Of a stretch of DNA of 64,000 bases, positions 26,516 through 42,989 are shown piece after piece (the stretch's first letter is position 1; each line of letters opens with the position of its first letter). The notes under the pieces are model-generated. The model did no database searches. It was not told where the DNA came from and saw only the letters and a program-made list of their open reading frames with translations. Source of the DNA: Bacteroidia bacterium (GTDB lineage Bacteria; Bacteroidota; Bacteroidia; AKYH767-A; OLB10); the NCBI GenBank assembly GCA_037045145.1, contig JBAOIA010000012.1:235210-299209 (forward strand), read 5' to 3'. Position numbers and translations under genes: made by a program.

Positions 26516-26545
26516 CAGGGAAGCTGCGCTTCCGATAAAAAACAC

Positions 26546-27076
26546 TTACATACTTAACACCTTAATCGGGCTGTTTTCGTTTGCGATGCTTAACCTCCAT
26601 AAATGCGGTTCATCAACAAAACCTGCTTCAACAGGATTACGATGTATGTAATCAACCTTTTGGTCTATGATGCGGTTAGAGTATAATTCAAATGCGTGAT
26701 TATCGTGTTGCCAAAACTGTTTTTCCTGTTTATGTGATGATAGTCTGCCATAAAACTTAAATTCTTTCATCAACCATTCGCGCCTGCTTTCCAGCATATT
26801 TTCTTCTATAGACTGCATTATCGTTTTAGCGGTAAAAGATTTCATATCACGCATTAAATCATTTAAAGTTCCTTCTTCTCTTGATGCAATTATGTGAACA
26901 TGGCTTGGCATGATGCAGTAGCAATATAGTTGCAGCCCTTTGTTTTTTTGGCAGTAAATAATACTGTCTGTAACTATATCCTGATACAATCGCCTTGTGA
27001 AAATATCAACCCAGCCAATGGTTGTAATTGTTACAAAATATAAACCGCCCGGAAAAGTTTTATAAACTTCAGACAT
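26546..27076 (-). CDS. REP-associated tyrosine transposase (RAYT; IS200/IS605-like Y1 HUH transposase)
   Basis: HUH motif SHVHIIA and the catalytic-Tyr helix VDYIHRNPVEAGFV. The start is taken at MSEVYKTFPGGLYFVT. Confidence 0.8.
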   Translation of the reverse strand: MSEVYKTFPGGLYFVTITTIGWVDIFTRRLYQDIVTDSIIYCQKNKGLQLYCYCIMPSHVHIIASREEGTLNDLMRDMKSFTAKTIMQSIEENMLESRREWLMKEFKFYGRLSSHKQEKQFWQHDNHAFELYSNRIIDQKVDYIHRNPVEAGFVDEPHLWRLSIANENSPIKVLSM

Positions 27077-27144
27077 TTGTTGTTTGCATATATGCAAAAA
27101 TGATAATTTTTAGATCAGTATATGATTGAAGTAAAACTTCCAAA

Positions 27145-27181
27145 CACAAAACCCACGAAGCACAGCTTCGCGGGTACGGGG
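27145..27181. repeat. REP-like hairpin, right arm of RAYT unit 1
   Basis: CACAAAACCCACGAAGCACAGCTTCGCGGGTACGGGG, the inverted copy of 26479-26515. Confidence 0.7.
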
Positions 27182-27212
27182 ATGCTGCGCTTATGAATTT
27201 GAGTAATTTCAT
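27182..27212 (-). pseudogene. 31-nt stump of a sixth paralog (start codon plus about 10 codons, MKLLKFISAA..)
   Basis: The segment 27182-27240 parallels the junctions at 30238-30295 and 31795-31852. It has the same 12-nt spacer, the same upstream CTD end, and ATGCTGCGCTTAT identical to the ATG-proximal arm of the SP-2 palindrome. The gene stops abruptly at REP1-R. Confidence 0.7.
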
Positions 27213-27225
27213 TTTACAACAAAAG

Positions 27226-28809
27226 TTATTCAACTATAAATTTCTTTACCAATCTTTCTTTTTCTGTTTGCAACGAAACAATGTACATGCCTTTTGCAAG
27301 TGCGCTGCAATTAATATCCTGTGTAAAATAACCTCCTGCGCTACCCCCAACCCCTGAAGGGGAGAGCCTACGCGCAGTGTTATAAATTAGATTGCCTGTA
27401 ACATCGTATATGGTTAGCGTTATACTTTTTCCTTTTAAATGCTGCGCATTTACAAACAGCTTTTGCCATGAAGCTATGTAGGTAACAAACAACTCCGCTC
27501 CCTTTGCTGATGTTGCAAGAGGTGCTATACCTGTTAGTGTATCACACGCACTACCTGCTATTGCTCCAAGTTCATAATTCGGATTATTAGGCAAGCCCAA
27601 GTATGTTCTCTTACCGCCAAGATAAAAACTGTAAGGCTGAAAATCACATGCCGAACCTAAACTATCAGGCTGGTTTATTACTGACAAGTTCATATTGTAC
27701 ATATTATAGACAGTATCAGGGTATGGGTAAGGAAACATAATTCCATTGTTGTACCAACATGCCAAATAAATTTTGCCATCGGATGCAAGTTTTAAACCAC
27801 CCCCAGCATAATTTGGAAAAGTCAACGCCCACAACGTATCCTTAGTAAGCGAAATATTCGCTGCGTTTAAATCATATTGAAATAAGTAAGTAGTATTTGG
27901 AGATGCGGTTACATACAACTTACTTTCATCGGGTGAAAATTCACAACTCCATGTAAAAGGATAGGGTGGCATACCCGCATCAGGCTCTATAGTAACGGGA
28001 TTATTTAACAATCCTGTGCAACGGTCAAAATCATAAAGTTCTATTAAACCCAACCAATTGGTAAATACCAATTTTTCGCCATCAGGCGAAAAATTGGTAT
28101 GCGCTCCTCCTGTTCTGTTTTGCGAACCAACGGACTGAACGGATAAATTCTGAATTCCGTTAGGAGTTATTAAATAGCTGTACCAATCGTTATTTGAACT
28201 AAATGTGAGTGCATCTGATTTTCTGAATAATAACCACCAATCTCTTCCGTTGCCATGCTTAACAGCATTTAAGCAATCCACTTGTTCAAAGCTTTGCAGT
28301 TGAACATTTTTAACTGTTACAGCACCCAAGCCGTTATTCAATCGCATATCTATTACGCTATAAACAATACCAAATGTATCGGTAATACTTATTGAGAAAA
28401 GGTAATATGTGCTGTCATTTGCAGGATTTGGAATTATAACCAATTCCTGATACCACAACCTGCCTACAATAGAATCCCCATTAAGCATTATATCATGATT
28501 TCTATCAAAAACAAAAGTTGCCATCTCTGTATTAGAAGCATATGCACGCATAGTAGCCGCATAAAACAACAGTTGTCCATTACTATCCGCAATGCTTACA
28601 CAACTGCCTCTTCCGTCAACAGAAGAAGAAAAAGTTACAGGTATTCCGCTTGAAAAATCAATACCAGCACTATCACCAAAACACCATACCGAGTTCCTAT
28701 TTTGTGAAACGCAAAAAAAATGGCAGCAACAAAGTGTTGCTGCCATTATTAAACATTTTAAACTATTTAATAACCACAAACCGTTTTTTAAAATATTCGC
28801 CTGCTTCAT
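27226..28809 (-). CDS. paralog A: T9SS-sorted secreted beta-propeller-like protein (SP-1 signal, CTD variant alpha)
   Basis: Shares the family motifs SVWCFGDS, GRGSC.SI.D..G.LLFY, KHGNGRDWW, FSPDGEKL, YDFDRCTG and LKLA.DGKIYL. The C-terminal about 90 aa has a Por_Secre_tail-like pattern (ITLTIYD..G...INCSALAKGMYIVSLQTEKERLVKKFIVE). The start is uncertain: 28809 overlaps gene B, and the conserved ATG is at 28746. Confidence 0.75.
   Translation of the reverse strand: MKQANILKNGLWLLNSLKCLIMAATLCCCHFFCVSQNRNSVWCFGDSAGIDFSSGIPVTFSSSVDGRGSCVSIADSNGQLLFYAATMRAYASNTEMATFVFDRNHDIMLNGDSIVGRLWYQELVIIPNPANDSTYYLFSISITDTFGIVYSVIDMRLNNGLGAVTVKNVQLQSFEQVDCLNAVKHGNGRDWWLLFRKSDALTFSSNNDWYSYLITPNGIQNLSVQSVGSQNRTGGAHTNFSPDGEKLVFTNWLGLIELYDFDRCTGLLNNPVTIEPDAGMPPYPFTWSCEFSPDESKLYVTASPNTTYLFQYDLNAANISLTKDTLWALTFPNYAGGGLKLASDGKIYLACWYNNGIMFPYPYPDTVYNMYNMNLSVINQPDSLGSACDFQPYSFYLGGKRTYLGLPNNPNYELGAIAGSACDTLTGIAPLATSAKGAELFVTYIASWQKLFVNAQHLKGKSITLTIYDVTGNLIYNTARRLSPSGVGGSAGGYFTQDINCSALAKGMYIVSLQTEKERLVKKFIVE
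28720..28746. repeat. SP-1 perfect palindrome (12-bp arms, 3-nt loop) containing the start ATG of paralog A and followed by U8 on the mRNA
   Basis: ATGGCAGCAACA-AAG-TGTTGCTGCCAT on the plus strand, with A8 at 28713-20 whose last A (28720) is the first stem base, i.e. 7 A beyond the stem. Confidence 0.85.
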
Positions 28810-30268
28810 TCTTTATTCTAATATTATACACTCCGTCAGAAAGCGAAGATACATCAATGCTGCCATTTGTGCCATTAGTTTGTTTTTCTATTATCAGTCG
28901 CCCGTAAATGTCGTAAACAACCAGTTCATTTTTTGCATCGCTTAATCCTGATATAAACAAGATGTTGTTTACAGGGTTGGGGTAAATGTTTATTAAGTTC
29001 CCCTTTGGGGGATTTAGGGGGCTTATGCCTGTCAACGTATCACACGCACTTCCCGCTAACGCCCCCAACTCATAATCCGGATTATTAGGCAAACCTCCGT
29101 AAGTTCTTTTGCCACCAAGATAAAATGAGTAGGGTTGTAAATCACATGCTGAGCCTAAGCTGTTGGGAGAGTTAATGGTGCTTAAATACATATTGGTGTT
29201 ATTATACATAGTGTCGTTATAAGGATAATATTGATAATAACTTGTTGCTAAATAAATTTTACCGTCAGGAGCAAGCTTTAAATCGTCCATAGTTTCATTA
29301 AAATGAGTTTGTCGCAATGTATCAACACTTGCAGCAATATTGGTTGCCGTTAAATCAAACTGATACAGCCGCGATGTATCGGTTGATTGTATGGGTATGC
29401 CGGATATATAAAGTAAATTATCGTCAGGCGAAAAACATGCGCCCCAATAACAACCAAATGGAGCTTGCGTGGGTTCAGGATAAATGGTTTGCAAATTACT
29501 TAATTGCCCTGTGCATCTGTCAAAGTCATACAATTCCAATAAGCCAACCAAGGTATAATATACCATTTTATTGCCATTATTTGAAAATTGAATTCTGCCA
29601 AACCCATGATTAGTTGCAAACCCAATATTTTGCGGCATGGAATCGGAAACACCCGCTGGCGAAATCAAATATTTGTAAAAAGTGTTGTTAATATTATTCC
29701 ACCTCCGGTTAATAATCCACCAGTCTCTTCCGTTGCCATGTTTAATGGCTTTTAATCCGTCAGCGCTTTTGTAATTATGTAACTGCACATTTTTTTGAAT
29801 CACTTCGCCTAATCCGCCATTGGCGCTCATATCAACTATGGAATAATATAAACCTAACTGACTACTACCCGTTACGCCAATGGAAAAAACATAATATTGA
29901 TTGTTGTTAGATGGATTATCAATAATTAAAACTTCATGGTACCAGGCTTGCATAACAATAGAATCACCATTTTGCATGATTTGATGTTGTTTATTCCAAA
30001 TTTCACCATTTTGAAATGGCGGACCTCCGGCAGCCCATGTATCTGTATTATAACCTGCATAAAATAACAGGCTTCCGGCACTGTCGGCAATGCTTGCACA
30101 ACTGCCGCGCGATTTTACCATGCTGCTGCCTGTTATGATATTGGCAGTATCACTAAAATCAACCAGCGCACTGTCGCCAAAGCACCACACGCTGCCCTGC
30201 TTTTGCGCATTTGCAAAATAAGCGCAGCATATAAGAAATGCTGCGCTTATGTATCGGAGTGATTTCAT
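28763..30268 (-). CDS. paralog B: T9SS-sorted beta-propeller-like protein (SP-2 signal, CTD variant beta)
   Basis: 501 aa. The CTD reads IYPNPVNNILFISGL...VVYDIYGRL...IDVSSLSDGVYNIRIKNEAGEYFKKRFVVIK. Confidence 0.8.
   Translation of the reverse strand: MKSLRYISAAFLICCAYFANAQKQGSVWCFGDSALVDFSDTANIITGSSMVKSRGSCASIADSAGSLLFYAGYNTDTWAAGGPPFQNGEIWNKQHQIMQNGDSIVMQAWYHEVLIIDNPSNNNQYYVFSIGVTGSSQLGLYYSIVDMSANGGLGEVIQKNVQLHNYKSADGLKAIKHGNGRDWWIINRRWNNINNTFYKYLISPAGVSDSMPQNIGFATNHGFGRIQFSNNGNKMVYYTLVGLLELYDFDRCTGQLSNLQTIYPEPTQAPFGCYWGACFSPDDNLLYISGIPIQSTDTSRLYQFDLTATNIAASVDTLRQTHFNETMDDLKLAPDGKIYLATSYYQYYPYNDTMYNNTNMYLSTINSPNSLGSACDLQPYSFYLGGKRTYGGLPNNPDYELGALAGSACDTLTGISPLNPPKGNLINIYPNPVNNILFISGLSDAKNELVVYDIYGRLIIEKQTNGTNGSIDVSSLSDGVYNIRIKNEAGEYFKKRFVVIK
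30218..30250. repeat. SP-2 perfect palindrome (13-bp arms, 7-nt loop) inside the signal-peptide codons of paralog B
   Basis: ATAAGCGCAGCAT-ATAAGAA-ATGCTGCGCTTAT. It encodes ISAAFLICCAY on the minus strand. Confidence 0.85.
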
Positions 30269-30280
30269 TTAAAACAAAAG

Positions 30281-31825
30281 TTATTCAACAACAAATTTAT
30301 TTACCAATCTTTCTTTTTCTGTTTGCAACGAAACAATGTACATGCCTTTTGCAAGTGCGCTGCAATTAATATCCTGTGTAAAATAACCTCCTGCGCTACC
30401 CCCAACCCCTGAAGGGGAGAGCGCACGCGCAGTGTTGTAAAATAACTTGCCTGAAATATCGTATATGGTTAGTGTTATATTTTTTCCTTTTAAATGCTGT
30501 GCATTTACAAACAACCTTTGCCATGATGCCATGTAGGTAACAAACAACTCCGCTCTCTTTGCTGATGTTGCAAGAGGTGCTATGCCCGTTAATGTATCGC
30601 ATGGGCTGCCTGATATTGCAGGCAGTGTATAATCAGGATTATTAGGTAAACCTCCGTAAGTTCTTTTGCCACCAAGATAAAATGAGTAGGGTTGTAAATC
30701 ACATGCTGAGCCTAAGCTGTTGGGAGAGTTAATGGTGCTTAAATACATATTGGTATTATTATACATAGTGTCCTTATAAGGATAATATTGATAATAGCTT
30801 GTTGCTAAATAAATTTTACCGTCAGGAGCTAATTTAAGAAATCCCATAGATGCATTAAAATGAGTTTGCCATAATGTATCGGCACTGGCAGCTATATTGG
30901 TTGCCGTTAAATCAAGCTGATACAGCCGCGATGTGTCGGTTGATTGTATGGGTATGCCGGATATATAAAGTAAATTATCGTCAGGCGAAAAACATGCTCC
31001 CCAATACCAGCGTAAGGGAGCCTGTGTGAGTTCAGGGTAAATGGTTTGTAAATTACTTAATTGCCCTGTGCATCTGTCAAAGTCATACAATTCCAATAAG
31101 CCAACCAAGGTATAATATACCATTTTATTGCCATTATTTGAAAATTGAATTCTGCCAAACCCATGATTAGTTGCAAACCCAATATTTTGCGGCATGGAAT
31201 CGGAAACACCCGCTGGCGAAATCAAATATTTGTAAAAAGTGTTGTTAATATTATTCCACCTCCGGTTAATAATCCACCAGTCTCTTCCGTTGCCATGCTT
31301 AATGGCTGTTAATCCGTCAGCGCTTTTGTAATTATGCAACTGTACATTTTTTTGAATCACTTCGCCTAATCCGCCATTAGCGCTCATATCAACTATGGAA
31401 TAATATAAACCTAACTGACTACTACCCGTTACGCCAATGGAAAAAACATAATATTGATTGTTGTTAGATGGATTATCAATAATTAAAACTTCATGGTACC
31501 AGGCTTGCATAACAATAGAATCACCATTTTGCATGATTTGATGTTGTTTATTCCAAATTTCACCATTTTGAAATGGCGGACCTCCGGCAGCCCATGTATC
31601 TGTATTATAACCTGCATAAAATAACAGGCTTCCGGCACTGTCGGCAATGCTTGCACAACTGCCGCGCGATTTTACCATGCTGCTGCCTGTTATGATATTG
31701 GCAGTATCACTAAAATCAACCAGCGCACTGTCGCCAAAGCACCACACGCTGCCTTGCTTTTGTGCATTTGCAAAATAAGCGCAGCATAGTAAAAATGCTG
31801 CGCTTATGTATCGGAGTGATTTCAT
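30281..31825 (-). CDS. paralog C: chimera of a B-like body and a D-like tail (SP-2 signal, CTD variant alpha)
   Basis: 514 aa. It is near-identical to B over the N-terminal region at a 1557-nt offset. The C-terminal about 130 aa are near-identical to D. Confidence 0.8.
   Translation of the reverse strand: MKSLRYISAAFLLCCAYFANAQKQGSVWCFGDSALVDFSDTANIITGSSMVKSRGSCASIADSAGSLLFYAGYNTDTWAAGGPPFQNGEIWNKQHQIMQNGDSIVMQAWYHEVLIIDNPSNNNQYYVFSIGVTGSSQLGLYYSIVDMSANGGLGEVIQKNVQLHNYKSADGLTAIKHGNGRDWWIINRRWNNINNTFYKYLISPAGVSDSMPQNIGFATNHGFGRIQFSNNGNKMVYYTLVGLLELYDFDRCTGQLSNLQTIYPELTQAPLRWYWGACFSPDDNLLYISGIPIQSTDTSRLYQLDLTATNIAASADTLWQTHFNASMGFLKLAPDGKIYLATSYYQYYPYKDTMYNNTNMYLSTINSPNSLGSACDLQPYSFYLGGKRTYGGLPNNPDYTLPAISGSPCDTLTGIAPLATSAKRAELFVTYMASWQRLFVNAQHLKGKNITLTIYDISGKLFYNTARALSPSGVGGSAGGYFTQDINCSALAKGMYIVSLQTEKERLVNKFVVE
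31775..31807. repeat. SP-2 perfect palindrome in paralog C
   Basis: ATAAGCGCAGCAT-AGTAAAA-ATGCTGCGCTTAT. The arms are identical to the B copy and the loop differs at 3 of 7 positions. Confidence 0.85.
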
Positions 31826-31837
31826 TTAAAACAAAAG

Positions 31838-33409
31838 TTATTCAACAACAAATTTATTTACCAATCTTTCTTTTTCTGTTTGCAAAGAAACAATATACAT
31901 GCCTTTTGCAAGTGCGCTGCAATTAATATCCTGTGTAAAATAACCGCCTGCGCTACCCCCAACCCCTGAAGGGGAGAGCACTCGCGCAGTGTTATAAATT
32001 AGCTTGCCTGTAACATCATATAGGGTTAGTGTTATATTTTTCCCTTTTAAATGCTGCGCATTTACAAACAATTTTTGCCATGATGCCATGTAGGTAACAA
32101 ACAACTCCGCTCCCTTTGCTGATGTTGCAAGAGGTGCTATACCCGTTAATGTATCACAGGGACTGCCTGATATTGCAGGCAGTGTATAATCAGGATTATT
32201 GGGTAAACCAAGATATGTTCTTTTGCCTCCGAGATAAAAACTGTAAGGCTGAAAATCACATGCAATTCCTAAACTATCAGGTTGGTTTATTACTGACAAG
32301 TTCATATTGTACATATTATAAACAGTATCCTGATATGGATAAGGAAATTGAACTCCATTATAATATATGCTGGCTAAATAAATTTTATTGTCTGGAGCTA
32401 ATTTTAATCCGCCTCCAGTATAAAGAGGATAGTTGGTTGTCCAAAGTGTATTTTTACTTTGTGAGATATTTGACGCATTTAAGTCATATTGAAATAGGTA
32501 AGTAGTATCATCTGCTGTTGTTACATATAATTTGCTTGCATCGGGTGAGAATTCACAACTCCAAGTATATGGCACTGATGGCAATGCTTCCGGTTCAATG
32601 GTAACAGGATTGCTCAATAATCCTGAACAACGGTCAAAATCATATAGCTCAACCAACCCAATCAAATTGGTAAATACCAATTTTTCGCCTGATGGCGAAA
32701 AATTGGTATATCCTGAGTTGGTTTTGTTTAATGAACCTATTGACTGAATGGAAAAATTCTGAACGCTGACAGGTGTAATTAAATAAGAATACCAGTCATT
32801 GTTGCCATTTGATAAAGAACCTGCTTTTCTGAATAATACCCACCAGTCCCTTCCATTGCCATGCTTAACGGCATTTAAGCAATCAACCTGCTCAAAGCTT
32901 TGCAGTTGAACATTTTTAACCGTCACAGCCCCCAAGCCGTTATTCAGCCGCATATCAATTATGCTGTAATATAAGCCATATATGCTCGTTACTCCAATAG
33001 AAAATAAGTAATAGGTGCTGTCATTAGCCGGATTGGGTACTATTACCAATTCCTGATACCAACCTCTGCCAACAATATTATTTCCGTTTTGCATTACCTG
33101 ATGAGTTGTATCAAAAACTAATGTGGTGTTGCCACTTATTGTGGCTCTTGTTTCGGCATAGAAAAGAAGTTTACCATTTTCATTTGCAATTGATGCGCAT
33201 GAACCTCTGGTATCTAATCCACATGAGCCAACTATAATATTTGAAGTATCACTGAAGTCAATTAAAGCGCTGTCGCCAAAGCACCACACCGAATTACGGT
33301 TTTGCGCATAGGAAAAGAAATGGCAGCAACAGAGTGTTGCTGCCATTAATGAAAATTTTAAATTATTTAATAACCACAAACCGTTTTTTAAAATATTCGC
33401 CTGCTTCAT
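31838..33409 (-). CDS. paralog D: T9SS-sorted beta-propeller-like protein (SP-1 signal, CTD variant alpha)
   Basis: 523 aa with the same family motifs. The start is uncertain: 33409 overlaps E, and the conserved ATG is at 33346. Confidence 0.75.
   Translation of the reverse strand: MKQANILKNGLWLLNNLKFSLMAATLCCCHFFSYAQNRNSVWCFGDSALIDFSDTSNIIVGSCGLDTRGSCASIANENGKLLFYAETRATISGNTTLVFDTTHQVMQNGNNIVGRGWYQELVIVPNPANDSTYYLFSIGVTSIYGLYYSIIDMRLNNGLGAVTVKNVQLQSFEQVDCLNAVKHGNGRDWWVLFRKAGSLSNGNNDWYSYLITPVSVQNFSIQSIGSLNKTNSGYTNFSPSGEKLVFTNLIGLVELYDFDRCSGLLSNPVTIEPEALPSVPYTWSCEFSPDASKLYVTTADDTTYLFQYDLNASNISQSKNTLWTTNYPLYTGGGLKLAPDNKIYLASIYYNGVQFPYPYQDTVYNMYNMNLSVINQPDSLGIACDFQPYSFYLGGKRTYLGLPNNPDYTLPAISGSPCDTLTGIAPLATSAKGAELFVTYMASWQKLFVNAQHLKGKNITLTLYDVTGKLIYNTARVLSPSGVGGSAGGYFTQDINCSALAKGMYIVSLQTEKERLVNKFVVE
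33320..33346. repeat. SP-1 perfect palindrome containing the conserved ATG of paralog D
   Basis: ATGGCAGCAACA-GAG-TGTTGCTGCCAT. It is followed on the mRNA by UUCUUUUCC. Confidence 0.85.
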
Positions 33410-34865
33410 TCTTTATTCTAAGGTTATACACTCCGTCAGAAAGCGAAGATACATCAATGCTGCCCGCTGCAGAAGCATTCTTCTTTAATAATAATCTGCC
33501 GTAAATATCATACACCTCTATTTCATTTTTGCCTTCAGGCATTCCGCTAACATACAATGTGCTGTTGGCGGGGTTGGGAAATATCCTCACCCCACCCCTC
33601 TCCAAAGGAGAGGGAGCTATGCCTGTAAGTGTATCACACACACTACCCGCTACCGCCTCCAACTCATAATCAGGATTATTAGGTAAACCAAGATATGTTC
33701 TTTTGCCTCCGAGATAAAAACTGTACGGCTGAAAATCACATGCTGCGCCTAAGCTATCAGGTTGGTTAATTACTGATAAGTTCATATTGTACATGTTGTA
33801 AACACTATCCCTGTAAGGATAATAATTAGAGGCATTATAATACACATTACTCAAATAGATTTTGTTATCAGGAGCCAACTTTAATCCTCCTATTGCATAA
33901 GGAAATAAATTAAATGACCATAGAGTATCTTTGCTTCCGGGAATATTGGGTGCGTTTAAATCGTATTGAAATAAATATGAAGTAGTTTGATTGGTGGTAA
34001 CATATAACTTACTTTCATCAGGAGAAAACTCACAACTCCAAATAAATGGATAAGGAGGGTTACCTAAATCAGGTTCTATAGTAACGGGATTATTTAACAA
34101 TCCTGTGCAACGATCAAAATCATAAACTTCAATCAAACCCAACCAATTGGTAAATACCAATTTTTCGCCATCAGGCGAAAAATTGGTATGCGCTCCTCCT
34201 GTTCTGTTTTGCGAACCAACGGACTGAACGGATAAATTCTGAATTCCGTTAGGAGTTATTAAATAGCTGTACCAATCGTTATTTGAACTAAATGTGAGTG
34301 CATCTGATTTTCTGAATATTAGCCACCAATCTCTTCCGTTACCATGTTTAACGGCATTTAAGCAATCCACTTGTTCAAAGCTTTGCAGTTGTATATTCTT
34401 AGCAGTAACTGCTCCTAATCCACCATTCTGTTTCATATCTATGATGCTGTAAACAAGTCCGTTATTACCAGTGACATTTATTGAAAAAAGATAATATACA
34501 CTGTCGTTGGCAGGATTAGGAACAATTACCAATTCCTGATACCAACCTTCTCCAACAATAGAATCTCCATCTTGCATTACTGATCCTGTTGAATTAAAAA
34601 CAAAGGTTGAATTATCAATACTTATGGCATACTTGTACATTGTTGCTGCATAAAAAAGTAAATTCCCGTTATTGTCTGAAATGCTGACACAGCTTCCCCG
34701 ACTATCCATTCCTGATTGAAAAGTAACAGGTAATCCCGAACCAAAATCTATTCCCGCACTATCGCCAAAGCACCATACGCTATTTCTATTTTGCGCATAA
34801 GAAAAAAAATGGCAGCAACAAAATGTTGCTGCCATTAGTAAGCATTTTAAATTAAGTGATTTCAA
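33363..34865 (-). CDS. paralog E: T9SS-sorted beta-propeller-like protein (SP-1 signal, CTD variant beta)
   Basis: 500 aa. The ORF track uses a TTG start at 34865, and the conserved ATG is at 34835. Confidence 0.75.
   Translation of the reverse strand: MKSLNLKCLLMAATFCCCHFFSYAQNRNSVWCFGDSAGIDFGSGLPVTFQSGMDSRGSCVSISDNNGNLLFYAATMYKYAISIDNSTFVFNSTGSVMQDGDSIVGEGWYQELVIVPNPANDSVYYLFSINVTGNNGLVYSIIDMKQNGGLGAVTAKNIQLQSFEQVDCLNAVKHGNGRDWWLIFRKSDALTFSSNNDWYSYLITPNGIQNLSVQSVGSQNRTGGAHTNFSPDGEKLVFTNWLGLIEVYDFDRCTGLLNNPVTIEPDLGNPPYPFIWSCEFSPDESKLYVTTNQTTSYLFQYDLNAPNIPGSKDTLWSFNLFPYAIGGLKLAPDNKIYLSNVYYNASNYYPYRDSVYNMYNMNLSVINQPDSLGAACDFQPYSFYLGGKRTYLGLPNNPDYELEAVAGSVCDTLTGIAPSPLERGGVRIFPNPANSTLYVSGMPEGKNEIEVYDIYGRLLLKKNASAAGSIDVSSLSDGVYNLRIKNEAGEYFKKRFVVIK
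34809..34835. repeat. SP-1 perfect palindrome containing the conserved ATG of paralog E
   Basis: ATGGCAGCAACA-AAA-TGTTGCTGCCAT. It is followed on the mRNA by U7CUU (A8 at 34802-34809, whose last A is the first stem base). Confidence 0.85.
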
Positions 34866-34866
34866 A

Positions 34867-37800
34867 TTATTTAATTACAATAAATCTCGTTCTAAAATAC
34901 TCATCTGTCTCATTTCGTATCCTCAGATTATAAATACCTTCTGCCAGCGAAGATACGTCAATTACGCCACTGCTGCTGTTATTTTGCTTTGTAAATAATA
35001 ACCTGCCATAAAGGTCGTAAACCTGCATTTCATTTTTACCATCACTCATTCCTGTTACCAACAGCAAGCTGTTGGCTGGGTTAGGTTGTATGCGTACCTT
35101 ATCAGCCGGCAGTGTTTTTTCAGGCAATTCATTCTGAGTATGACTGCCACCCTGCCGCAATGCGGGCAATTCAGGAGAGTAATATTCCTTACCGAGCAAG
35201 GCTGCCGCACTGTAAACGCTCTTGCCCGCTATGAGCCAGTGCTGCGCCAGCAGGCTTTCCAACGCTGTGGTGTCTGTTGCATCAAGCGTATCACCTGCTG
35301 CCAGCTTGCCGATAATAAGGCTGTTGATGAGCTTATAGTTGGCTTCCATATCATTGCTTTCGGTAATGCTGCTGTTAATGGTTGCAGCAGCAGCAATGTC
35401 ATCGGCTTTAATAGCCTGCTTTACGGAGTCAAACTTGCCTATGTTGGCATTGAGCATGACATTGTAAAATGCGCGGAATGATGAGTCAGCCGCGCTGCCT
35501 GTGGTGAGCAGTGTGGTGTCAGCGCTGAGCCGTTTGAACAGGGTTTCTTTAGCAAGGTATTTAGCCTCATCTGCATAACTATCGTACACAGCAGAATCAC
35601 CCACTACGGGACCAAATTCTTTATCTCTGTCAATATCGACATTGGTAAATAACGCGGTTGCACAATCAGTATTTGAACTTGCTTCATTATCATCCGCTAA
35701 AATAACATTCCCATTATAAGGATCAGGAGTAAATAAATTATTTACGTCTGTTTCATCTCCTTGAAAATACCATTTAAAAGGTGATGCTACCTGCAAGTAT
35801 CCATCCACTTTCATTAAAGCATTGTTTGAAGTAATCCATTGATTATCCCATGCGTTATTTGCAGTTCCCTGAGGTGAAAATTGTGCGTTTTCATACCAAA
35901 TACCTTTGTTATAATCAGTCATCACATTATTTTTCAGCCGCGTGGTTTGGCAATCGCCCTCAAAGCGCAGGGCATAGCCGAGGCGTGTAATGCCGTTGCC
36001 GCATATATTCAGGTTTTGAGAATTGTCGGCAGCAATGCCGCGTATTTTATCAGCATTATAAGCAACAACGCTGTTGTTATAAATGTCGTTCGCTTTAATA
36101 ACAGCATCGTTGCAGTCCTGTATAAATATGCCTGAATACATTTGGCTTGTTTCTAATCCGTCATCAGCCTCCATAGCAATGGTGTTGGGCAAAAGGCTGC
36201 TGCCGTCCGTTCCAACGCTTATGCCCGGTGTGTTGTTGGCATATATTCCTATTCGCGCTCCGGTTATGGAGTTGTCTGTAATAGTTACTGCGCTGTTTGC
36301 GCCCTGCTCATATAATACCCTTATGCCATAATCGCCAGTTGCATAAATGTTATTATGGTCAACGGAAACGGCATTGCCTGTGGTGGCTGTGCTGTTTATA
36401 TAAACGGCAGAAGTAGGAACAGTTAAATCGGCAGGTGTTTTTACATGCAAATCGTTACCGGTAATCTGAATAGTGTTGCTGCCGCATTTTTCAACCAAAA
36501 TGTTGTTTTTGCTGTTGCTCATGGCATTCTGGTTGCATTTAACAAAGCTGCCTGCAAGCTTTCCGTTGCAGTTAAACATCCTGTACCCTGCTTCGGCACA
36601 GTTGTTTATTGTGTTTTGTTCCATCCTCAACTGCTCAGTTACATTGCCAATGCCATACCTCATGTTTTCAAATGTGTTGTGCAAAATAATTTTATCATCA
36701 TTGGCATTGGCGGCTTCGCCCAATATTAAAGCTCCGTAGCCGGTGGGCGAGGTTATAAGCGGATAAGCCAGTAACCGCGCCTGTGACACATCGGGTACAC
36801 GCCCCGGTGCATCTTTAAAATAATTGTACCGGATGTTATAGTCAACGGGGTTTACTAATCTTATACCATAGTCCATGTCAGAAAAAACATTTTGCTCATT
36901 TGCTGCGCCAATGGTTAAATCGGATGGCGCGAGGAGCAGAATATGGTTAAACGATTTGTCGCCATATTCATAAACCGCTCTTCCGCTGCACCTGAAAATG
37001 CAATTATGTATTTGCATATTGCTGTAATCCGTTACGCCCGCCCCTAATTCAACTATGCCGTAAAAATTATGGTCGAATAAGGTATTGGATAAATTAATAT
37101 TTGTAATGGATGAGGAATTGCCGTTAATTGCAATAGCTGCTTCGGCATCTTCCATATCGGAATTGGTTATTTCCAGCTCGGAAGTGCCGTCAGCAAGCAC
37201 AATGCCTTTCCATAACACATTACAACCGAAAAAACGGCTGTCTTGTACATCTAGCTTTTTGCCTGCATCAACATATATTCCCACTCCCTGGCTGCAAATT
37301 ACTGTTTTGTTGTTAAATAAATTAAAATCGGCATCTACCGTAAAATCATCCGTAAGATATACCACATCAGGAGTTATAACGCTGATTGCGCTTGCAATGT
37401 TATTTCCACTATTAATAGTAAATGTGCTGCTGACGCACAATGTTGAAGATAATGTGCCGCACACATCGGGCTGCGGCTGCAAAGCAAGGTTTTTGTCTTC
37501 GGCAATAACTATTTGGTCAACTAACACGTTTCCGTTAATGCTGTTAATGGATAATGTATATTCCTGATTATCGAGTTGGCTCAATAAAATAGGAGATAAA
37601 CTGTTTGGCAAAAACCGATACCAATTCCAGTCACTGCTGCTAATACAGCTTAACGTACAAACGGGAGTACCGTCCAATTTAATTTCAAGCTGGCTGCCTG
37701 AACCGGCATCTTTGGCTTTTATCCAAACATAATAATCGGTATCATCAACTCTGGGGTGAAATTTATATTCAACAGGGGCACTTCCTGCTGCAAAAGAAAT

Positions 37801-39540
37801 ATAAGTGGTAAAGTTTCTATAATCACCAGAAGATGTTCCACCCGGTACAGATGTAACACGGGTTACATTTGCAGGTGCAGAAACATTATCCCACACCTCG
37901 GCTTCAAACCAAAAATCTTTGCTCCAGCGGTCAGGGTGCTTATATTCATGCCATGCATCAAGCTGGTAGAATACAGGAGGATTAACAGAAGCATCGAAAA
38001 TGTAAGTGCTGCCCTGCCTGCGAACGTTAAACTGCAAGTCGTAAGTGGATGTGCTTCCGCCTGCATTATCAGCCAAATGTATTTTGGCTGCTTTTTCCAA
38101 AGGAGCATTGCCTTTTACATTGGAGTAAGGTTGAACGGTACCGGTGATGACGTATTTTTCTATAGCATTATCTTTTCTGGAAAGCACCAACACATCAGGT
38201 GAACTAGATTTAAAGGCGTACATCATATCGGGCGCAGCAGAATTACCCGGCTCTTGTAATCTGTCACCTTCAAGCAAATGTCCATCTATAATTAAATCAG
38301 CAAATCGGTCCGCTATTGCATGTGCGTAAGCAGGTGTTGCAGCTTGCCAAACATAACCTTTAGGTTCAACAACATCTGGAAGTGCAAAAACATGAAAGAA
38401 ATCAGATCCAAGAACAGAGACTGCCTTTAACAATCCAAGCCATTGCCCGGGTCTTAAATTATCTTCTTCATTATGAGCCCATCCGGGTGCAACAAATGGC
38501 GCATTTATATAATCCCCGTTATTTAATTCTTCTTTTTTGCTTCTGGTCAGCCATAAAAATCCGTGATCTGCAGAGCGAGATTCTCTAAGCCAGTCTTCTG
38601 GTCTTCTTGGATAAAAGTCAGGCGTAGCAAGCCTGACATTTACGGGCGTTGAACCGTATTGTACAACCGATTGGGTTTCTCTTAATTCATTATAGCGGTA
38701 TCTTGCTTGATCGTAATTGATTCCGTTATTAGTTACTAACTTCCAATGACCATCAACAGCATAATTTAGAAATATGGTTCCATCAGAAACAAGTTTTGAA
38801 ATATTCATAAAATTGTCCCTATAATCATTGTCAAGTTCTTTTCCCTTTGTTGCCATAAATTCTTCCCATTTTAATGGTGTATCAGCATTTCCAGATAAAA
38901 ATGTAATGTAAGCAGATGACAATGGAGTAGAAGATAATGTATTTCTTAAATTATAAATTGCTTTATGAGAAACCTCATTATTTTCAGAAATTACTTTGAC
39001 TTTTGCAGAAATTCCGTTTAAAATAGTTTGTAAATAATCATTCTGCAATAATCCATCTGTTGCATACACATCTCTTTTGTTTGAAAAAATATTTCCTGTT
39101 CCTGTTCCAAATGCCGGGCTGTAATTCCAAAAATGTGTACCACTGTTGTTTCCTTCAAAATTATAAAACATACTTGACTTATAAAGATAAAAATCCTCAT
39201 CACTAACGGTAACAGTACCAAAATTTGTAAAGCTTGTAGCGTTTTGTTCCCTGATCCAGGAGTTGGTAATTCCAGGAGGCACTTTATTAACAAGAGATGA
39301 TGGCAATGAATGTCCAAGATCACTTGTACTATAACTTAATTGAGCACGATTTGTTATAATTCCTATTTCATCAGTTGAATTAAAATTTGTTGCTGCATAA
39401 TTAATATATTGTTGATTTTCGGGATCAAGATATGTTCTCGTGTTTTCACAAATATTGAATAAATAATACCAATTTTTATACAGTTCGAGCTGTACATTTA
39501 AGGATCTTGTTCCATCATGTTCTCCAAGATAGTTACTCCC
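34867..39540 (-). pseudogene. C-terminal fragment (1,557 codons) of a giant T9SS-sorted protein split by RAYT unit 2
   Basis: The frame is open from 39540 down to the stop at 34867. The ORF track reports only 34867..39306 from an internal TTG. A TAG contributed by the inserted element (39541-43) lies immediately upstream. The fragment contains PbH1-type beta-helix repeats, a CBM-like segment and the CTD IQPNPANSLLLVTG...IDVSSLAEGIYNLRIRNETDEYFRTRFIVIK. Confidence 0.7.
39505..39540. repeat. 36-bp direct repeat, left copy (flanks RAYT unit 2)
   Basis: TCTTGTTCCATCATGTTCTCCAAGATAGTTACTCCC, identical to 40192-40227. Confidence 0.9.
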
Positions 39541-39569
39541 CTACTGGCGCAAGTCTTCAGACTTGTGCC
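39541..39569. repeat. REP-like hairpin, left arm of RAYT unit 2
   Basis: GGCGCAAGTC-TTCA-GACTTGTGCC (one G-T pair). Confidence 0.7.
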
Positions 39570-39601
39570 ATCCTGTCATTAAAAATTGCACATTTGCAAC
39601 C

Positions 39602-40153
39602 ATGAGTTCCAAGTATAAGTTTCACACTCCTGATGCCATATATTTTGTTACTTTTTCGGTTATAAACTGGATTGATGTTTTTACAAGAAACGGTTATAAA
39701 GATATTTTAATTGACAGTATAAAACATTGCCAAAAAGAAAAAGGCTTAGTGGTTCATGCTTGGGTTATTATGACCAATCATGTACACATGATTATTTCTA
39801 AAAACGGAACATGTGTGCTGCCTGATATAATGCGCGACCTTAAAAAATTTACAGCCTATAAAATTACAGGGGCAATTATGGAAAATTCTCAGGAAAGCAG
39901 GCGCGAATGGATGTTTAATCTTTTTAAACGGGCTGGTGAAAGAAATTCCAACAATACAAACTGGCAGTTTTGGCAACAGGATAATCATCCTGTTGAATTA
40001 ACTGATGCAAGAATGCAAGAACAAAAATTAAATTACATACATGAAAATCCTGTGCGGGCAGGATTTGTTTATAACCCTGAAGACTATGTGTACAGTAGCG
40101 CAACGGATTATTGCGGCAGCAAAGGGCTTATTGACTTAGTGCTGCTTGAATGA
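39602..40153 (+). CDS. REP-associated tyrosine transposase (RAYT) paralog
   Basis: MSSKYKFHTPDAIYFVT..., HUH motif NHVHMII, Tyr helix LNYIHENPVRAGFV. It is about half identical to the RAYT at 26546 by eye. The ATG at 39602 is preferred because the TTG at 39563 lies inside the hairpin. Confidence 0.8.
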   Translation: MSSKYKFHTPDAIYFVTFSVINWIDVFTRNGYKDILIDSIKHCQKEKGLVVHAWVIMTNHVHMIISKNGTCVLPDIMRDLKKFTAYKITGAIMENSQESRREWMFNLFKRAGERNSNNTNWQFWQQDNHPVELTDARMQEQKLNYIHENPVRAGFVYNPEDYVYSSATDYCGSKGLIDLVLLE

Positions 40154-40159
40154 TAGTAG

Positions 40160-40191
40160 GGCGCAAGTCTGAAGACTTGCGCCAGTGGGGG
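40160..40191. repeat. REP-like hairpin, right arm of RAYT unit 2
   Basis: GGCGCAAGTC-TGAA-GACTTGCGCC, a perfect 10-bp stem. Confidence 0.7.
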
Positions 40192-40227
40192 TCTTGTTCC
40201 ATCATGTTCTCCAAGATAGTTACTCCC
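40192..40227. repeat. 36-bp direct repeat, right copy
   Basis: Identical to 39505-39540. Confidence 0.9.
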
Positions 40228-42989
40228 TAACCAATTAAAATTTCTCCTTAATGTTCTATTAGATTTGTATCTTGGTAAAGGATATGCTTTCAGTTGTTCA
40301 ATAACATTTTTAACTTCACTGTAATTTCCTGTTCCGGGAGCGTATCCAAACGGATAATCGTTTTCATCATACTGTCCGGCATTTGTAAATGTAAGTGGAC
40401 TATAGGGCGAAGTGTTTTGGGTGAAAACATTTAAAGAAGTGGTATTTAATCCATGTTGTTCAATTGTTTTATCACACAATTCATTTTGTAAATAAATAGC
40501 CACCTGATCGAAATAACCACCCATGTTCGTATGCTCACTACTGGTTTTTAAATTTAAATCCATCCCGGTTCCATTTATAAAAAGGCCTGTTATTGATGCA
40601 TTAATAATATCTTTACTAAAACCTTCATTGAGTTTTCCATCAATCCATATTTGCTTTTGATAATGATGAGCAGCAATTTTTTTATGAACAAAACAGAAGT
40701 AATGCCATGAGTCGTTAGTATAATAACCAAAAGATTTTTCATTAATTCCATCGAAAGGAATAAAAAAACTTTCATAAGGTATTGCTGTCGATCCGGTTAT
40801 TCCTGAATAATCGGTACTAAAACTGATACCGGTTTGATCAATTGATGCGCTGTGTACGCCATTTTGTATTCTAAAAAATCCGGCAGAAGCTCTGTTTGCA
40901 AAATTTCCATCAAACCTCACATACATTTCAACTGCAAAATATTCAGATGTTTGATCAATTAACACATTGGGTACATATAAATCTGTTCCGTTATCGCTAA
41001 GTAATGAATAACCTGTATTTGGAATTCCGGAATTACTTACCAGTGTATTAGTTCCACTTGAAGACAGTGTCGTAGAAAATATGGCAGGGCTGGAACTAGC
41101 AAAGTTATTGGCATCAAAATTATAATAGTAATCAGGTGCAATTGCACCTGAAATACATGATGCAAACACAAATGCCGTGTATCCTAAAGTAAAGTTACCA
41201 AAGCTGTTTAGGTTGCTGGCATTTGTTGCCGAACCAACAGTTCTGTCTCCGGATAAGGCAACTGTTCCCAAATCACTCCATTGCGTACCGTTCCATCTTG
41301 CCAATTTAACTTTTGAGCTGTCAAAAACACTGCTGTATCTATTCCAAGATAAGGTAACTTTAACCTGTGAGCTGCCTGTATTCCGCGCTAAATTCCAATA
41401 GTTGCTTCCATTTATATAATCAATGCCTGATTGCCGTGCATTTGGGTCGTTTGGTAATGCTCCTGCAAAATACTCTCCCGTAAACGCATCGGTTGTGTTT
41501 GAAGGTGCAGAAATTCCAATTGCCCTGCAGCTGTTTCCCTTTCCTGTTGGAAACACAAATGCGCTGTTGCCGATTTTCTTAACAGGCCCGTCAATATAAC
41601 TGCTGTCGCTTGCTCCGCTCACAGTGCCACCGTTGTTTATGGTAAGCAAATTGCTGCTTGTGGTGGTGAGCGTGCCTTTTGCAAACGTTACCGTTCCGCT
41701 TACAGCCAATGCAGTTGCCAGTGTTGCACTGCCTCCACTTTTGTTCAGCATCAAGTTTTTCACAAGCGTGTTGCTGTGAAAGCTTAATAATTGTGTTCCG
41801 CTTCCTGCAAGGCACAAGGTGCCTGTGCCTGCATTAAAGGTGGTATTGTTTGCTGTGGTTATGTTTCCGTAAAACGAACTTACATCACCACCATAACACA
41901 CCCTCAGCTCGCGTGAGCCGCCAAAGGTGGCATCGGCATAGTAGGTATTGGAAGTATCGGCATCAAGCCGCAGGTTACCCGCGCTGGCATTGTTGGTAAA
42001 GGTGGCATTGCCATAAAACTTATTGCCGCCATACCAACTGCTGCTGCCGCTGCCTGTGGCGGTAAACGATGCCGTTCCGTTAAAATTACAGTTTTTAAAT
42101 AACAGCGAGTTGGATGTAATGCTGAAATCACCTCCGAATGTAGCTCCTGTTATGCTTGGCAATGCCGATCCTGTAAAGGTGAGGCTTATGGCAGTGCTGC
42201 CATCCTGATAAAAATTAGTGGCATTAAAATCACCTGCTGAAAAACCTCCGCTGCCTATGCTTATGGTATGCCCTGCTGTAAGCGTATCGTTACCCAGCAG
42301 AATTCCTCCTGCTCCGGTATTTATTAAAACCATATCGCCATTGAACACATTAATGCCCGCTCCTGCAAAGGTTATTTCTTTTGTTCCTTTGTTATGTATG
42401 GTTACCTTACCGTTAAAGCGGTGCCCTGTGCTGTTGTTCATTACCCACACTCCTGCACCTGTATAATTATGATAGAGGTAAACGCTGTCGTTAAACACCG
42501 CTCCACCGCTTCCTGTGCCGGGTACATCGGTAATGGTTTCAAAATAGCAATAATTATTAAACGTAGCGGCATTGAGATCAATACGGCTCACCACTGCATT
42601 AATCACCACATTAAACGTGGTGCTGCCAAATGTCATTTGCGTGCCTGTAAGCTCAAGCCTTCCATTGCTGATAGTGCCTCCACTAAATACGCTAGATCCG
42701 GAGTTCAATACCAATGTATCGCCATTGCAATTTAAGGTTCCGCTATGCATGGTCATTCCGCTAAGTGTTTTTTTGCCGGGCAGGGTGGGATTGAAAGTAG
42801 CACTATAAATATGCACATAATCTCCACTTCCCGGCACGCCTGCAGGCGACCAGTTGGATGTGGTGTTCCAGGCTGTGCTTGTGCCGCCTGTCCAGGTGTA
42901 GGTTGTTGCTAACGACAGCAGCCCGCTCAGTATAAGCGCTGCCGTTAAAATCAGTTGGATATATTTTTTCATGATAGATAGTTTAAGAA

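Follow-up and report, generated by a model that had tools for sequence, protein, structure and literature searches.

The window, by which is meant the whole 64,000-nucleotide stretch of DNA that was analysed, holds a tandem array of genes for cargo proteins of the type IX secretion system (T9SS), with a hairpin at every junction. All six genes encode a C-terminal Por_Secre_tail/TIGR04183 sorting domain (CTD) that scores above the curated cut-offs (PF18962, 29-58 bits against 27; TIGR04183, 25-52 bits against 23). The intergenic spacers of the array are only 1-16 nt long, and the paralogs are conversion mosaics whose boundaries show no clean match with the positions of the hairpins. From upstream to downstream, the genes are as follows.

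34867-39306, minus strand: giant T9SS cargo ORF, CTD-beta, upstream of E
33363-34865, minus strand: paralog E, T9SS type-A cargo protein, CTD-beta
31838-33409, minus strand: paralog D, CTD-alpha, start at 33409 or 33346
30281-31825, minus strand: paralog C, CTD-alpha, normal start MKSLRY
28763-30268, minus strand: paralog B, CTD-beta, normal start MKSLRY
27226-28809, minus strand: paralog A, CTD-alpha, start at 28809 or 28746

Paralogs A, D and E carry the class-1 hairpins. Their palindrome, ATGGCAGCAACANNNTGTTGCTGCCAT, has exactly three matches (28720-28746, 33320-33346 and 34809-34835), a number that is unchanged when three mismatches are allowed, and its chance expectation from 100 dinucleotide shuffles is 0. 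The first-pass annotation had described this three-copy palindrome, and its positions, its loops CTT, CTC and TTT and the in-frame reading M-A-A-T-x-C-C-C-H were all confirmed, as were the tails that follow the stem (U8 in A, UUCUUUUCC in D and U8CUU in E) and the distances from the upstream stop to the palindrome: 16 nt in A (after B), 16 nt in D (after E) and 31 nt in E (after the giant gene). The arms are indeed identical, as had been claimed, but the stems are 13 bp long rather than 12: each is perfect, AATGGCAGCAACA/TGTTGCTGCCATT, with six G-C pairs, a 3-nt loop and a dG of -19.3 kcal/mol.

34808-34836, minus strand: class-1 hairpin of E, loop TTT, encoding MAATFCCCH
34802-34809, minus strand: U8 directly after the E stem, codons CAT TTT TTT TCT
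33319-33347, minus strand: class-1 hairpin of D, loop CTC
33311-33320, minus strand: interrupted U-tract after the D stem, TTTCTTTTCC
28719-28747, minus strand: class-1 hairpin of A, loop CTT
28713-28720, minus strand: U8 directly after the A stem

The hairpins of B and C, which had been missed earlier, form class 2. Both have the form ATAAGCGCAGCAT-7 nt-ATGCTGCGCTTAT; the stem has 13 pairs with no mismatch and a dG of -19.8 kcal/mol, begins about 28 nt after the upstream stop and is centred on the same signal-peptide codon position as class 1. A hairpin is present at all five array junctions, with a truncated one at the start of a sixth gene, and the two classes are sequence classes of one element across the junctions. 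The perfect stems of B and C contradict the claim that no hairpin follows a CTD-alpha gene, and the proposed tie of the hairpin to CTD-beta is unsupported, since these two genes also carry one.

31775-31807, minus strand: class-2 hairpin of C, loop tttttac
30218-30250, minus strand: class-2 hairpin of B, loop ttcttat, followed by TTTGCAAATG; encodes ISAAFLICCAY
27182-27212, minus strand: sixth-paralog remnant, ATG AAA TTA CTC AAA TTC ATA AGC GCA GCA T

Two further features of the array deserve a record of their own. Two RAYT (REP-associated tyrosine transposase) genes bracket it, each with its own REP hairpins, and in the DNA analysed REP-1 (GGCGCAAGTC...) and REP-2 (CCCGCGAAGC...) were seen only beside their own RAYT genes. 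The homology of the sixth-paralog remnant to B and C runs through the class-2 5' arm to its final base and gives way there to the REP of RAYT-2, and the 9-nt microhomology AAGCGCAGC at this truncation also lies inside the RAYT-2 element. In mid-gene, A, D and E contain a second perfect coding palindrome of 36 nt, whose 4-nt loop reads, on the plus strand, atca in A and E and tgat in D. Two identities were considered for the signal-peptide hairpins and rejected. They are not REP/REPIN elements, being intragenic, lineage-specific and without a match to the local REPs, and they are not integron attC sites, defined here as imperfect palindromes of 57-141 nt with R and L boxes, extrahelical bases and an adjoining integron integrase, for they are perfect stems of 29 nt with no GTTRRRY core. 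No integrase was found among the neighbouring ORFs scanned, a part of those in the window.

The ATG of the hairpin is the sole in-frame ATG common to A, D and E, but it is not a conserved start codon, and the description of the palindrome as one is unsupported as a general property: L087 has ATA at this position, and class 2 has AGC. Other starts are available in all three paralogs.

34863-34865, minus strand: in-frame TTG, probable start of E (M-KSLNLKCLL-MAAT...), 1 nt after the TAA of the giant gene
33407-33409, minus strand: alternative in-frame ATG of D, overlapping the upstream gene
28807-28809, minus strand: alternative in-frame ATG of A (MKQANILKNGLWLLNSLKCLI-MAAT...), overlapping the final 47 nt of gene B

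Read from the probable TTG start at 34865, E gives MKSLNLKCLLMAAT..., which is homologous to the MKSLRYISAAF... of B and C, and both E and its ortholog L083 retain an in-frame TTG-KS(L/F)NLK start. A Sec signal peptide of the Bacteroidota has a positive n-region, a hydrophobic h-region and small residues at -3 and -1, and is cut by signal peptidase I with Gln at +1 (the "Q-rule"); an h-region with Cys-Cys-Cys-His departs from the usual type. By inspection, E from the TTG divides into MKSLNLK / CLLMAATFCCCHFF / SYA|Q, whereas from the hairpin ATG the charged n-region is absent and the peptide has 15 residues only. In E, B and C the start codon is found 16-29 nt ahead of the stem, as it is in the relatives L005 and L087, which have a normal n-region, and the ancestral upstream start was lost in A and D only, by way of a 15-nt deletion.

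Alignment of the homologs separates the hairpin from the peptide that it encodes. The first-pass annotation had called for a search for compensatory substitutions in the arms and for frozen synonymous sites, and both were found. Among 15 homologs, 7 of the 16 stem pairs have changed on both sides, with 24 such cells, and the covariation score was reached by none of 500 shuffles, while slid controls stayed near zero. In close relatives none of the 26 arm sites varies, compared with 2/3 in the loop and 7/20, 16/32 and 33/60 in the flanks; of the third codon positions, 0/9 vary in the arms against 42/51 downstream. A relative that kept MAATxCCCH with non-complementary codons would have spoken for the peptide, but the opposite was found, with pairing retained through MAATLCCCH, IIAATYCCCYY, IMTAMLCCCH, IMAVIFLLLPL and ISAAFLICCAY. 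In L015 and L011, the 3' arm is even translated in a different frame, and comparison of the homologs indicates that the length of the T-run has changed in evolution so as to restore the reading frame. The hairpin holds the same position across classes whose proteins are only 49-60% identical. On this comparative evidence, with pairing retained through changes of the peptide, the conserved entity is a nucleic-acid structure, not MAATxCCCH.

The wider family shows where such hairpins occur and on which strand they are read. Hairpins of -15 kcal/mol or stronger are present in 39 of 162 gene 5' regions as against 8 of 767 gene-body windows, about 70-75% of family members being without one, and their placement is of two kinds, 3-18 nt ahead of the ATG or 16-47 nt past it. 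No fewer than nine unrelated hairpin sequences occupy the same 80-nt stretch of homologous genes; they are wholly different between gene lineages and co-evolve with their genes. Across 39 distinct hairpins the stems are nearly all Watson-Crick (541 pairs, 19 others). In the 5' hairpins, G.U pairs number 15 and A.C mismatches 5, compared with 40 and 36 in chance gene-body hairpins, a bias that points to RNA of the sense strand. It is also the sense strand alone that carries the U-tract, which reaches beyond the palindrome; the antisense side has 1-2 T in 8, and a T-run of at least five occurs at the U-tract position in 2% of 91 hairpin-less family members. Spacing from the upstream gene recurs as well, in counts that rest largely on the one gene lineage of classes 1 and 2 and are not phylogenetically independent: of 14 class-1 and class-2 homologs, 12 have their hairpin 12-31 nt past the stop of a co-directional upstream gene, a gap of 41-120 nt is filled by a hairpin in 14 of 22 relatives that have one, and 13 of 19 hairpins in upstream gaps start -3 to 17 nt after the upstream stop. 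In a third set (L007, L025, L035, L065, L100 and others), the signal-peptide codons have their pairing partner in the mature N-terminus. Members of this set have no U-tract, and several have no nearby upstream gene, so a terminator role cannot cover all the 5' hairpins of the family. The family pattern offers a test bed for telling selection on RNA pairing from the upkeep of palindromes by template switching.

Shape and position suggest that the element serves the upstream cistron as an intrinsic terminator or attenuator, its hairpin being embedded in the signal-peptide codons of the next gene; this is the likeliest reading, and we give it about an even chance. Both classes have a stable, G+C-rich stem with a short loop, the immediate U-rich tract of A, D and E has its counterpart in B and C (UUAUUUUG), a co-directional stop lies close upstream throughout, and the class-1 hairpins are among the top hits of a terminator scan. 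The earlier claim is supported in so far as it describes a real, selected hairpin that doubles as the core of the signal peptide and, just past the stop of the upstream gene, has the geometry of an intrinsic terminator. The hairpin would fall inside the signal-peptide codons because the spacers are so short, and the overlap would be tolerable because the h-region accepts nearly any hydrophobic sequence. The A-rich 5' flank would then be read as Asn, Lys or Ile, the GC-rich stem as Ala-Ala and Cys-Cys and the U-tract as Phe, Leu or Ile, with selection acting on base pairing, the peptide MAATxCCCH its passenger and the perfect arms perhaps kept perfect by template switching. Downstream paralogs would be transcribed by read-through only, giving graded or insulated expression along the array, and translation would modulate the termination or attenuation; in A and D, the ribosome that terminates upstream may also need to open the stem for access to the AUG.

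An attenuator of the leader-peptide type, mediated by the ribosome, was rejected. It would need a mutually exclusive antiterminator, in which upstream sequence pairs with the 5' arm of the terminator, and the folds of the five junctions have no conserved alternative pairing of that arm; the only alternative fold joins the class-2 3' arm to a downstream GGCAGCGTGTG, which is transcribed too late to prevent termination. A search of Rfam 15 gave no match at the gathering score, the best being DapZ with 32.6 and 30.4 bits against a threshold of 56 for the A and D hairpins, which we read as matches to a generic terminator-like stem-loop. Among the points against the terminator reading are the many family members that lack a strong hairpin, the third set with no U-tract, and the capacity of template switching to produce such arms without selection. 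Another is that any promoter of the downstream gene has to be placed ahead of the hairpin, so that the element would also throttle its own gene. Boxes that might serve occur before B and C, and none of this type was found before A, D or E.

31849-31856, minus strand: TAAATTTG box before C, identical to that before B
30292-30299, minus strand: TAAATTTG, matching the Bacteroidetes -7 promoter consensus TAnnTTTG, in the last CTD-alpha codons, 23 nt before the ATG of B

A broader version of the terminator reading is tentative and, in our judgement, rather doubtful. It holds that the dual-coded 5' hairpins across the family are translation-sensitive terminators or attenuators that gate read-through along arrays. 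Transcription of a paralog would require ribosomes to be engaged on its signal-peptide codons, yielding graded or switchable expression of surface-protein variants; pairing would be maintained while the peptide drifts, and the adjoining T-run would be an evolutionary, possibly phase-variable, frame-reset site. Should the element terminate or attenuate, it would be a natural overlapping code, with a regulatory RNA and a signal peptide on the same 29-45 nt and the RNA constraint dominant. It would show that punctuation is possible in gene arrays with almost no intergenic DNA, would explain some odd Bacteroidota signal peptides such as those with Cys-Cys-Cys-His, and would mean that gene callers and signal-peptide predictors can be misled at such junctions, for example by choosing the ATG of the stem as the start. 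Even a functionless element would document perfect coding palindromes that persist in bacterial genes.

Other readings place the action elsewhere. The stem could gate translation of the downstream gene rather than terminate transcription, by holding the AUG and the early codons of A and D in the stem or, in a variant, by preventing base pairing between the U-rich signal-peptide codons and the A-rich initiation region, which has no Shine-Dalgarno sequence; to our knowledge, initiation in Bacteroidota is not led by one. Such a gate, opened by the ribosome that finishes the upstream gene (translational coupling), could coexist with a terminator role. In A and D the upstream stop is within reach of a terminating ribosome, the placement of strong family hairpins around the ATG is also in its favour, and the U-tract-less hairpins, even those with no upstream gene, fit a role in the gene's own 5' region. 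We nevertheless hold this to be unlikely, as the start is not sequestered in the five genes where it lies upstream of the stem, and the U-tract, unusual at this signal-peptide position, is left unexplained. Similarly unlikely is a DNA palindrome that maintains itself and has no function as RNA, created and re-perfected by template switching in replication, spread among paralogs by gene conversion and persisting in signal-peptide codons only since that segment tolerates nearly any hydrophobic sequence. The near-exclusive Watson-Crick pairing, the mosaic paralogs, the absence of the hairpin from most family members and the mid-gene palindrome, with its loop inverted between D and A/E, are all in keeping with it. 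The G.U bias, which control hairpins lack, argues instead for sense-strand RNA, as does a sense-only U-tract that continues past the palindrome; position is constant across diverged classes, spacing from the upstream stop is consistent, and none of the signal-peptide hairpins shows a loop inversion.

A DNA-level cruciform or recombination site, be it attC-like, a REP-like RAYT target or a hotspot at which paralogs are shuffled, seems very improbable. The bracketing RAYT genes, the sixth paralog that ends at the 5' arm of its hairpin just where a REP begins, and the mosaic paralogs all invite the idea, but the hairpins are lineage-specific and not dispersed near-identical copies, have no sequence in common with either REP type, and form short, perfect stems without attC boxes; the mosaic boundaries do not fall cleanly at them, and the truncation is explicable by the shared microhomology. 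Scarcely credible, and already contradicted, is the view that the palindrome is incidental, with selection for MAATxCCCH that happens to be palindromic in its codons. Complementary codon pairs (GCA/TGC, ACA/TGT, ATG/CAT) do make some peptides palindrome-prone, and the mid-gene FSPxGEK behaves likewise. Relatives, however, retain the pairing through changes of the peptide and, for the 3' arm, of the reading frame itself, nine of nine third-codon positions in the arms are frozen, and the Cys-Cys-Cys-His core is not what an h-region would call for.

Several known systems share features with the array hairpins. Translational-coupling hairpins keep a downstream start hidden for as long as the upstream cistron is untranslated, as in the coat-replicase junction of RNA phage MS2 and several E. 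coli operons; A and D resemble them, with the AUG in the 5' arm 16 nt past the upstream stop, whereas in E, B, C and relatives the start is upstream, outside the stem. REP/REPIN elements are short palindromes near gene 3' ends that can serve as terminators or mRNA stabilisers. The array hairpins are like them in size and place, and two RAYT genes with flanking REPs adjoin the array, but they are not dispersed repeats, are inherited with their genes and share no sequence with the local REPs. In Nematomorpha, mitochondrial genes contain coding palindromes of up to 284 bp (PMC6649704), likewise perfect inverted repeats with both arms translated; these are much longer, belong to animal mitochondria and have no tie to gene starts or terminator geometry. 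Template switching can yield perfect Watson-Crick arms and double-sided changes without selection (PMC8794818), and spacer inversion with arm homogenisation is its stated signature (PMC8604942, PMC8794818). That signature, perfect arms with an inverted loop between copies, is seen in the mid-gene palindrome, and the array hairpins share the perfect arms and multi-base double-sided changes of such quasi-palindrome products while adding a G.U bias, a U-tract and a fixed place relative to gene boundaries, so that template switching would explain their origin and upkeep, not their location. Like intrinsic terminators and intercistronic attenuators, they combine a G+C-rich perfect stem, a short loop and an immediate sense U-tract 16-31 nt past a stop, and they are about as strong as the intergenic hairpins that other genomes have between family genes. 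Unlike known intrinsic terminators, they leave no room for a promoter before the downstream start, and they lie wholly within the next ORF, where they encode the core of its signal peptide.

On the minus strand, the array runs from the giant ORF (34867-39306) through the tandem paralogs E, D, C, B and A. Each of the six encodes a T9SS type-A C-terminal sorting domain (CTD). The first-pass annotation had described a 27-nt palindrome in A, D and E, and its three copies were borne out: the pattern ATGGCAGCAACA-NNN-TGTTGCTGCCAT has exactly three matches in the window, even with three mismatches permitted, none being expected in shuffled sequence, and the loops, tails and spacing from the upstream stops were the same on re-examination. 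Each of these class-1 stems gains one extra pair, giving 13 bp with a dG of -19.3 kcal/mol, and is the dominant structure where the region is folded. That set was incomplete: B and C each have a hairpin of 13 perfect pairs (class 2, -19.8 kcal/mol) of the form ATAAGCGCAGCAT-7 nt-ATGCTGCGCTTAT, and after it TTTGCAAATG. A hairpin is thereby found at all array junctions, 16-31 nt past the upstream stop.

Signal-peptide hairpins of the array
28720-28746, minus strand: class-1 palindrome, gene A
30218-30250, minus strand: class-2 hairpin, gene B, 13 perfect bp
31775-31807, minus strand: class-2 hairpin, gene C, 13 perfect bp
33320-33346, minus strand: class-1 palindrome, gene D
34809-34835, minus strand: class-1 palindrome, gene E

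When 15 homologs are aligned with few gaps (A2), the paired columns are identical for both classes, which argues that a single element, centred at the same signal-peptide codons, exists in two sequence versions. Loci from reference genomes (79) and metagenomes (80) were compared; relatives come from activated-sludge MAGs, and one contig, Ga0209573_1000756, matches at 100%. The comparative tests favour a selected hairpin, in which the structure is conserved and not the peptide. Compensatory arm substitutions, which the first-pass annotation had proposed to look for, are present: double-sided changes affect 7 of the 16 stem pairs (24 cells in A2), the observed covariation score was reached in none of 500 shuffles, and the signal was lost when partner columns were slid. 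For example, ATG/CAT is replaced by AGC/GCT in class 2 and by ATA/TAT in L087 (L-numbers denote homologous loci in other genomes), GGC/GCC becomes GAC/GTC in L005, and GCAACA/TGTTGC becomes GTAATA/TATTAC in L015. The peptide varies along with the stem (MAATLCCCH, IIAATYCCCYY, IMTAMLCCCH, ISAAFLICCAY), and L015 and L011 read the 3' arm in a frame shifted by one, with LLLPLF in place of CCCH and an indel at the hairpin top that is offset by the length of the T-run after the stem. Five copies (A, D, E, L001 and L083) share the same arms; across them, variable sites number 0/26 in the arms, 2/3 in the loop, and 7/20, 16/32 and 33/60 in the flanks. The synonymous sites of the arms, also suggested earlier as a check, are frozen in these copies, with 0/9 third codon positions variable versus 42/51 downstream. 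A palindrome driven by the peptide is rejected on the covariation, the frame difference and these frozen sites.

The most likely reading of these sequences is that the element is the intrinsic terminator or attenuator of the upstream gene, embedded in the following gene's signal-peptide codons, which are permissive, and expression of the downstream paralog would then need read-through of the hairpin. This reading draws on terminator geometry, U-tract, stop spacing, hairpins in intergenic gaps and G.U bias. Classes 1 and 2 show the full, directional geometry, only their sense strand carrying a U-tract 3' of the stem; this tract is unusual at that signal-peptide position, where a run of at least five Ts is found in 2% of 91 hairpin-less homologs. 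Of 14 class-1 and class-2 hairpins, 12 start 12-31 nt past a co-directional stop, a positional statistic dominated by one gene lineage and not independent. Relatives with an intergenic gap of 41-120 nt hold a comparable hairpin inside the gap (14/22), and where the gap does not exceed 40 nt, none has the hairpin upstream and 19/61 have it within the signal-peptide codons, a cross-tabulation that is suggestive and phylogenetically non-independent. Upstream hairpins of this sort number 19; the distance from stop to hairpin start is -3 to 17 nt in 13 of them, and 17 leave 3-18 nt between their end and the following ATG. Internal G.U pairs outnumber A.C mismatches by 15 to 5 in 5' hairpins, versus 40 to 36 in chance hairpins of gene bodies, an excess that points to sense RNA.

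A classical attenuator with an antiterminator was sought and none was found. The class-2 3' arm of B can alternatively pair with the downstream GGCAGCGTGTG (Gly-Ser-Val-Trp codons; about 30168-30215, minus strand) at -23.2 kcal/mol, and this alternative is weaker in C and L017. B and C are each preceded by a TAAATTTG box, a perfect copy of the Bacteroidetes -7 consensus TAnnTTTG, which falls within the final codons of the upstream CTD-alpha (one of two CTD variants); no such box precedes A, D or E. Since TAnnTTTG is not enriched across the window (72 found versus 95 expected), these boxes are only leads; a sigma-70 promoter scan is uninformative for Bacteroidota.

TAAATTTG boxes
30292-30299, minus strand: 23 nt before the ATG of B
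31849-31856, minus strand: 23 nt before the ATG of C

The ATG of the palindrome had been taken as the conserved start codon, which did not hold, as L005, L087, B and C start upstream of the stem. L005 (MQTRYLIMTAM...) and L087 (MSFKIKFLIIAAT...) do so with a normal charged n-region, and B and C begin with MKSLRY. E and its ortholog L083 retain an in-frame TTG-AAA-TCA-YTT where B and C have ATG-AAA-TCA-CTC, and a TTG start there (34865 in E, the other candidate being the stem ATG at 34835) yields MKSLNLKCLLMAAT.... The junctions before A and D and their L001 counterpart match that of E except for the absence of 15 nt flanked by two TAATTT direct repeats; this deletion removed the upstream start, which leaves A and D with two options, the stem ATG (28746 and 33346, respectively) or an in-frame ATG (28809 and 33409) overlapping the upstream gene. 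For A and D, translational gating by the hairpin is plausible, possibly alongside termination. A, E, L001 and L083, unlike D, have an out-of-frame ATG 10 nt upstream of the one in the hairpin (28754-28756 in A and 34843-34845 in E, minus strand). It opens a 19-codon ORF, MFNNGSNTLLLPFFLRFTK*, which traverses the stem; loss of one T from the T8 run, leaving T7, would put this ORF in frame with the main one, whose signal peptide would then be of the LLLPFF type, like those of L015, L011 and L035. No T8 length variants were seen in the assemblies.

Template switching can make and re-perfect stems, imitating compensatory change (PMC8794818), and is the likely mechanism that keeps the arms of the signal-peptide hairpin perfect. 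Its hallmarks, arm homogenisation and spacer inversion (PMC8604942), are both visible in a second perfect palindrome of A, D and E, which looks like a template-switch signature: ATACCAATTTTTCGCC-4 nt-GGCGAAAAATTGGTAT, with a 16-bp stem at -23.1 kcal/mol.

Mid-gene 36-nt palindrome
28065-28100: gene A
32674-32709: gene D
34154-34189: gene E

It encodes TNFSP(D/S)GEKLVF, and the 4-nt loop of D is the reverse complement of the A/E loop, changing Asp to Ser. The FSPxGEK motif is intrinsically quasi-palindromic; the perfect palindrome is seen in this genome only. The paralogs are recombination (conversion) mosaics across 27226-34865, with E identical to A over about 230 nt mid-gene (100%), C nearly identical to B up to the C-terminal domain, and the two C-terminal domain variants exchanged among otherwise different paralogs. 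Mosaic breakpoints at the palindromes are not clean.

A sequence-specific protein operator or recombinase site is rejected, as homologous genes bear unrelated palindromes at the same place. Sequence diversity and architecture also speak against reading the signal-peptide hairpins as REPs (short hairpins beside genes for REP-associated tyrosine transposases, RAYTs) or, on sequence inspection, as attC sites. Rfam returned no match to a known RNA family, with DapZ and L20-leader scores below threshold.

Two RAYT genes, 49% identical to each other, flank the array, each with its own inverted pair of REP-like hairpins.

RAYT genes (NF047646, cut-off 80 bits) and REP-like hairpins
26546-27097, minus strand: RAYT-2, 100 bits
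26486-26508 and 27152-27174: its REP-like hairpins
39563-40153, plus strand: RAYT-1, 107 bits
39546-39569 and 40160-40183: its REP-like hairpins

The hairpin at 27175-27151 was rejected as the terminal terminator of the array, being the REP of RAYT-2. A start remnant of a sixth paralog (MKLLKFISAA; 27182-27212, minus strand) lies 13 nt past the gene A stop and retains the class-2 5' arm, with homology stopping exactly at the last base of the arm, where the RAYT-2 REP follows. The 9-mer AAGCGCAGC at the remnant recurs within the RAYT-2 element (26523-26531), which makes a microhomology-mediated rearrangement a possible explanation of the truncation. The giant ORF (1479 aa) has an N-terminus without a signal peptide, and a 971-aa ORF without a Pfam match (40108-43023, minus strand) ends within the RAYT-1 element just upstream; each may be half of a single very large T9SS cargo gene interrupted by the RAYT-1 insertion.

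Hairpins of -15 kcal/mol or stronger occur in 39 of 162 5' regions of the family versus 8 of 767 gene-body windows, and the majority of members are without one. In a third group (L007, L025, L035, L065, L100, L105, L061 and L074, with L097 and L044 likewise), the signal-peptide codons pair with those of the conserved mature N-terminus QNR(N/G)xIW. The stems are unrelated between genes, with 11-18 perfect pairs, or 24 in L074 and L044 with G.U allowed (and a bulge in L074), and their arms change together with the RNAI/RGNI difference in the protein.

Third-group stems
L007, 5148-5191
L007, 6663-6702
L025, 3037-3076
L035, 2993-3031
L100, ending at ~239

A U-tract is missing from these stems, and for several there is no upstream gene nearby, from which it follows that some 5' hairpins of the family must do something other than terminate, or nothing. 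The intergenic hairpins of L022, L130, L010 and L055 have GCAGCAA-like or AATGGCA cores in common with the signal-peptide hairpin. A covariance model built from A2 retrieves class-1 and class-2 signal-peptide hairpins only (L081 and L127 being new), with the L010 hairpin marginal (E about 0.2) and L022, L130 and L055 not retrieved; common descent is therefore unsupported.

In full-text literature searches, no terminator or conserved terminator-like hairpin was found described within Bacteroidota signal-peptide codons, and the value of the finding hinges on an experimental demonstration of termination or attenuation. Its ingredients are individually known, namely intrinsic terminators, coupling hairpins, template-switch palindromes and coding palindromes (the last in PMC6649704).
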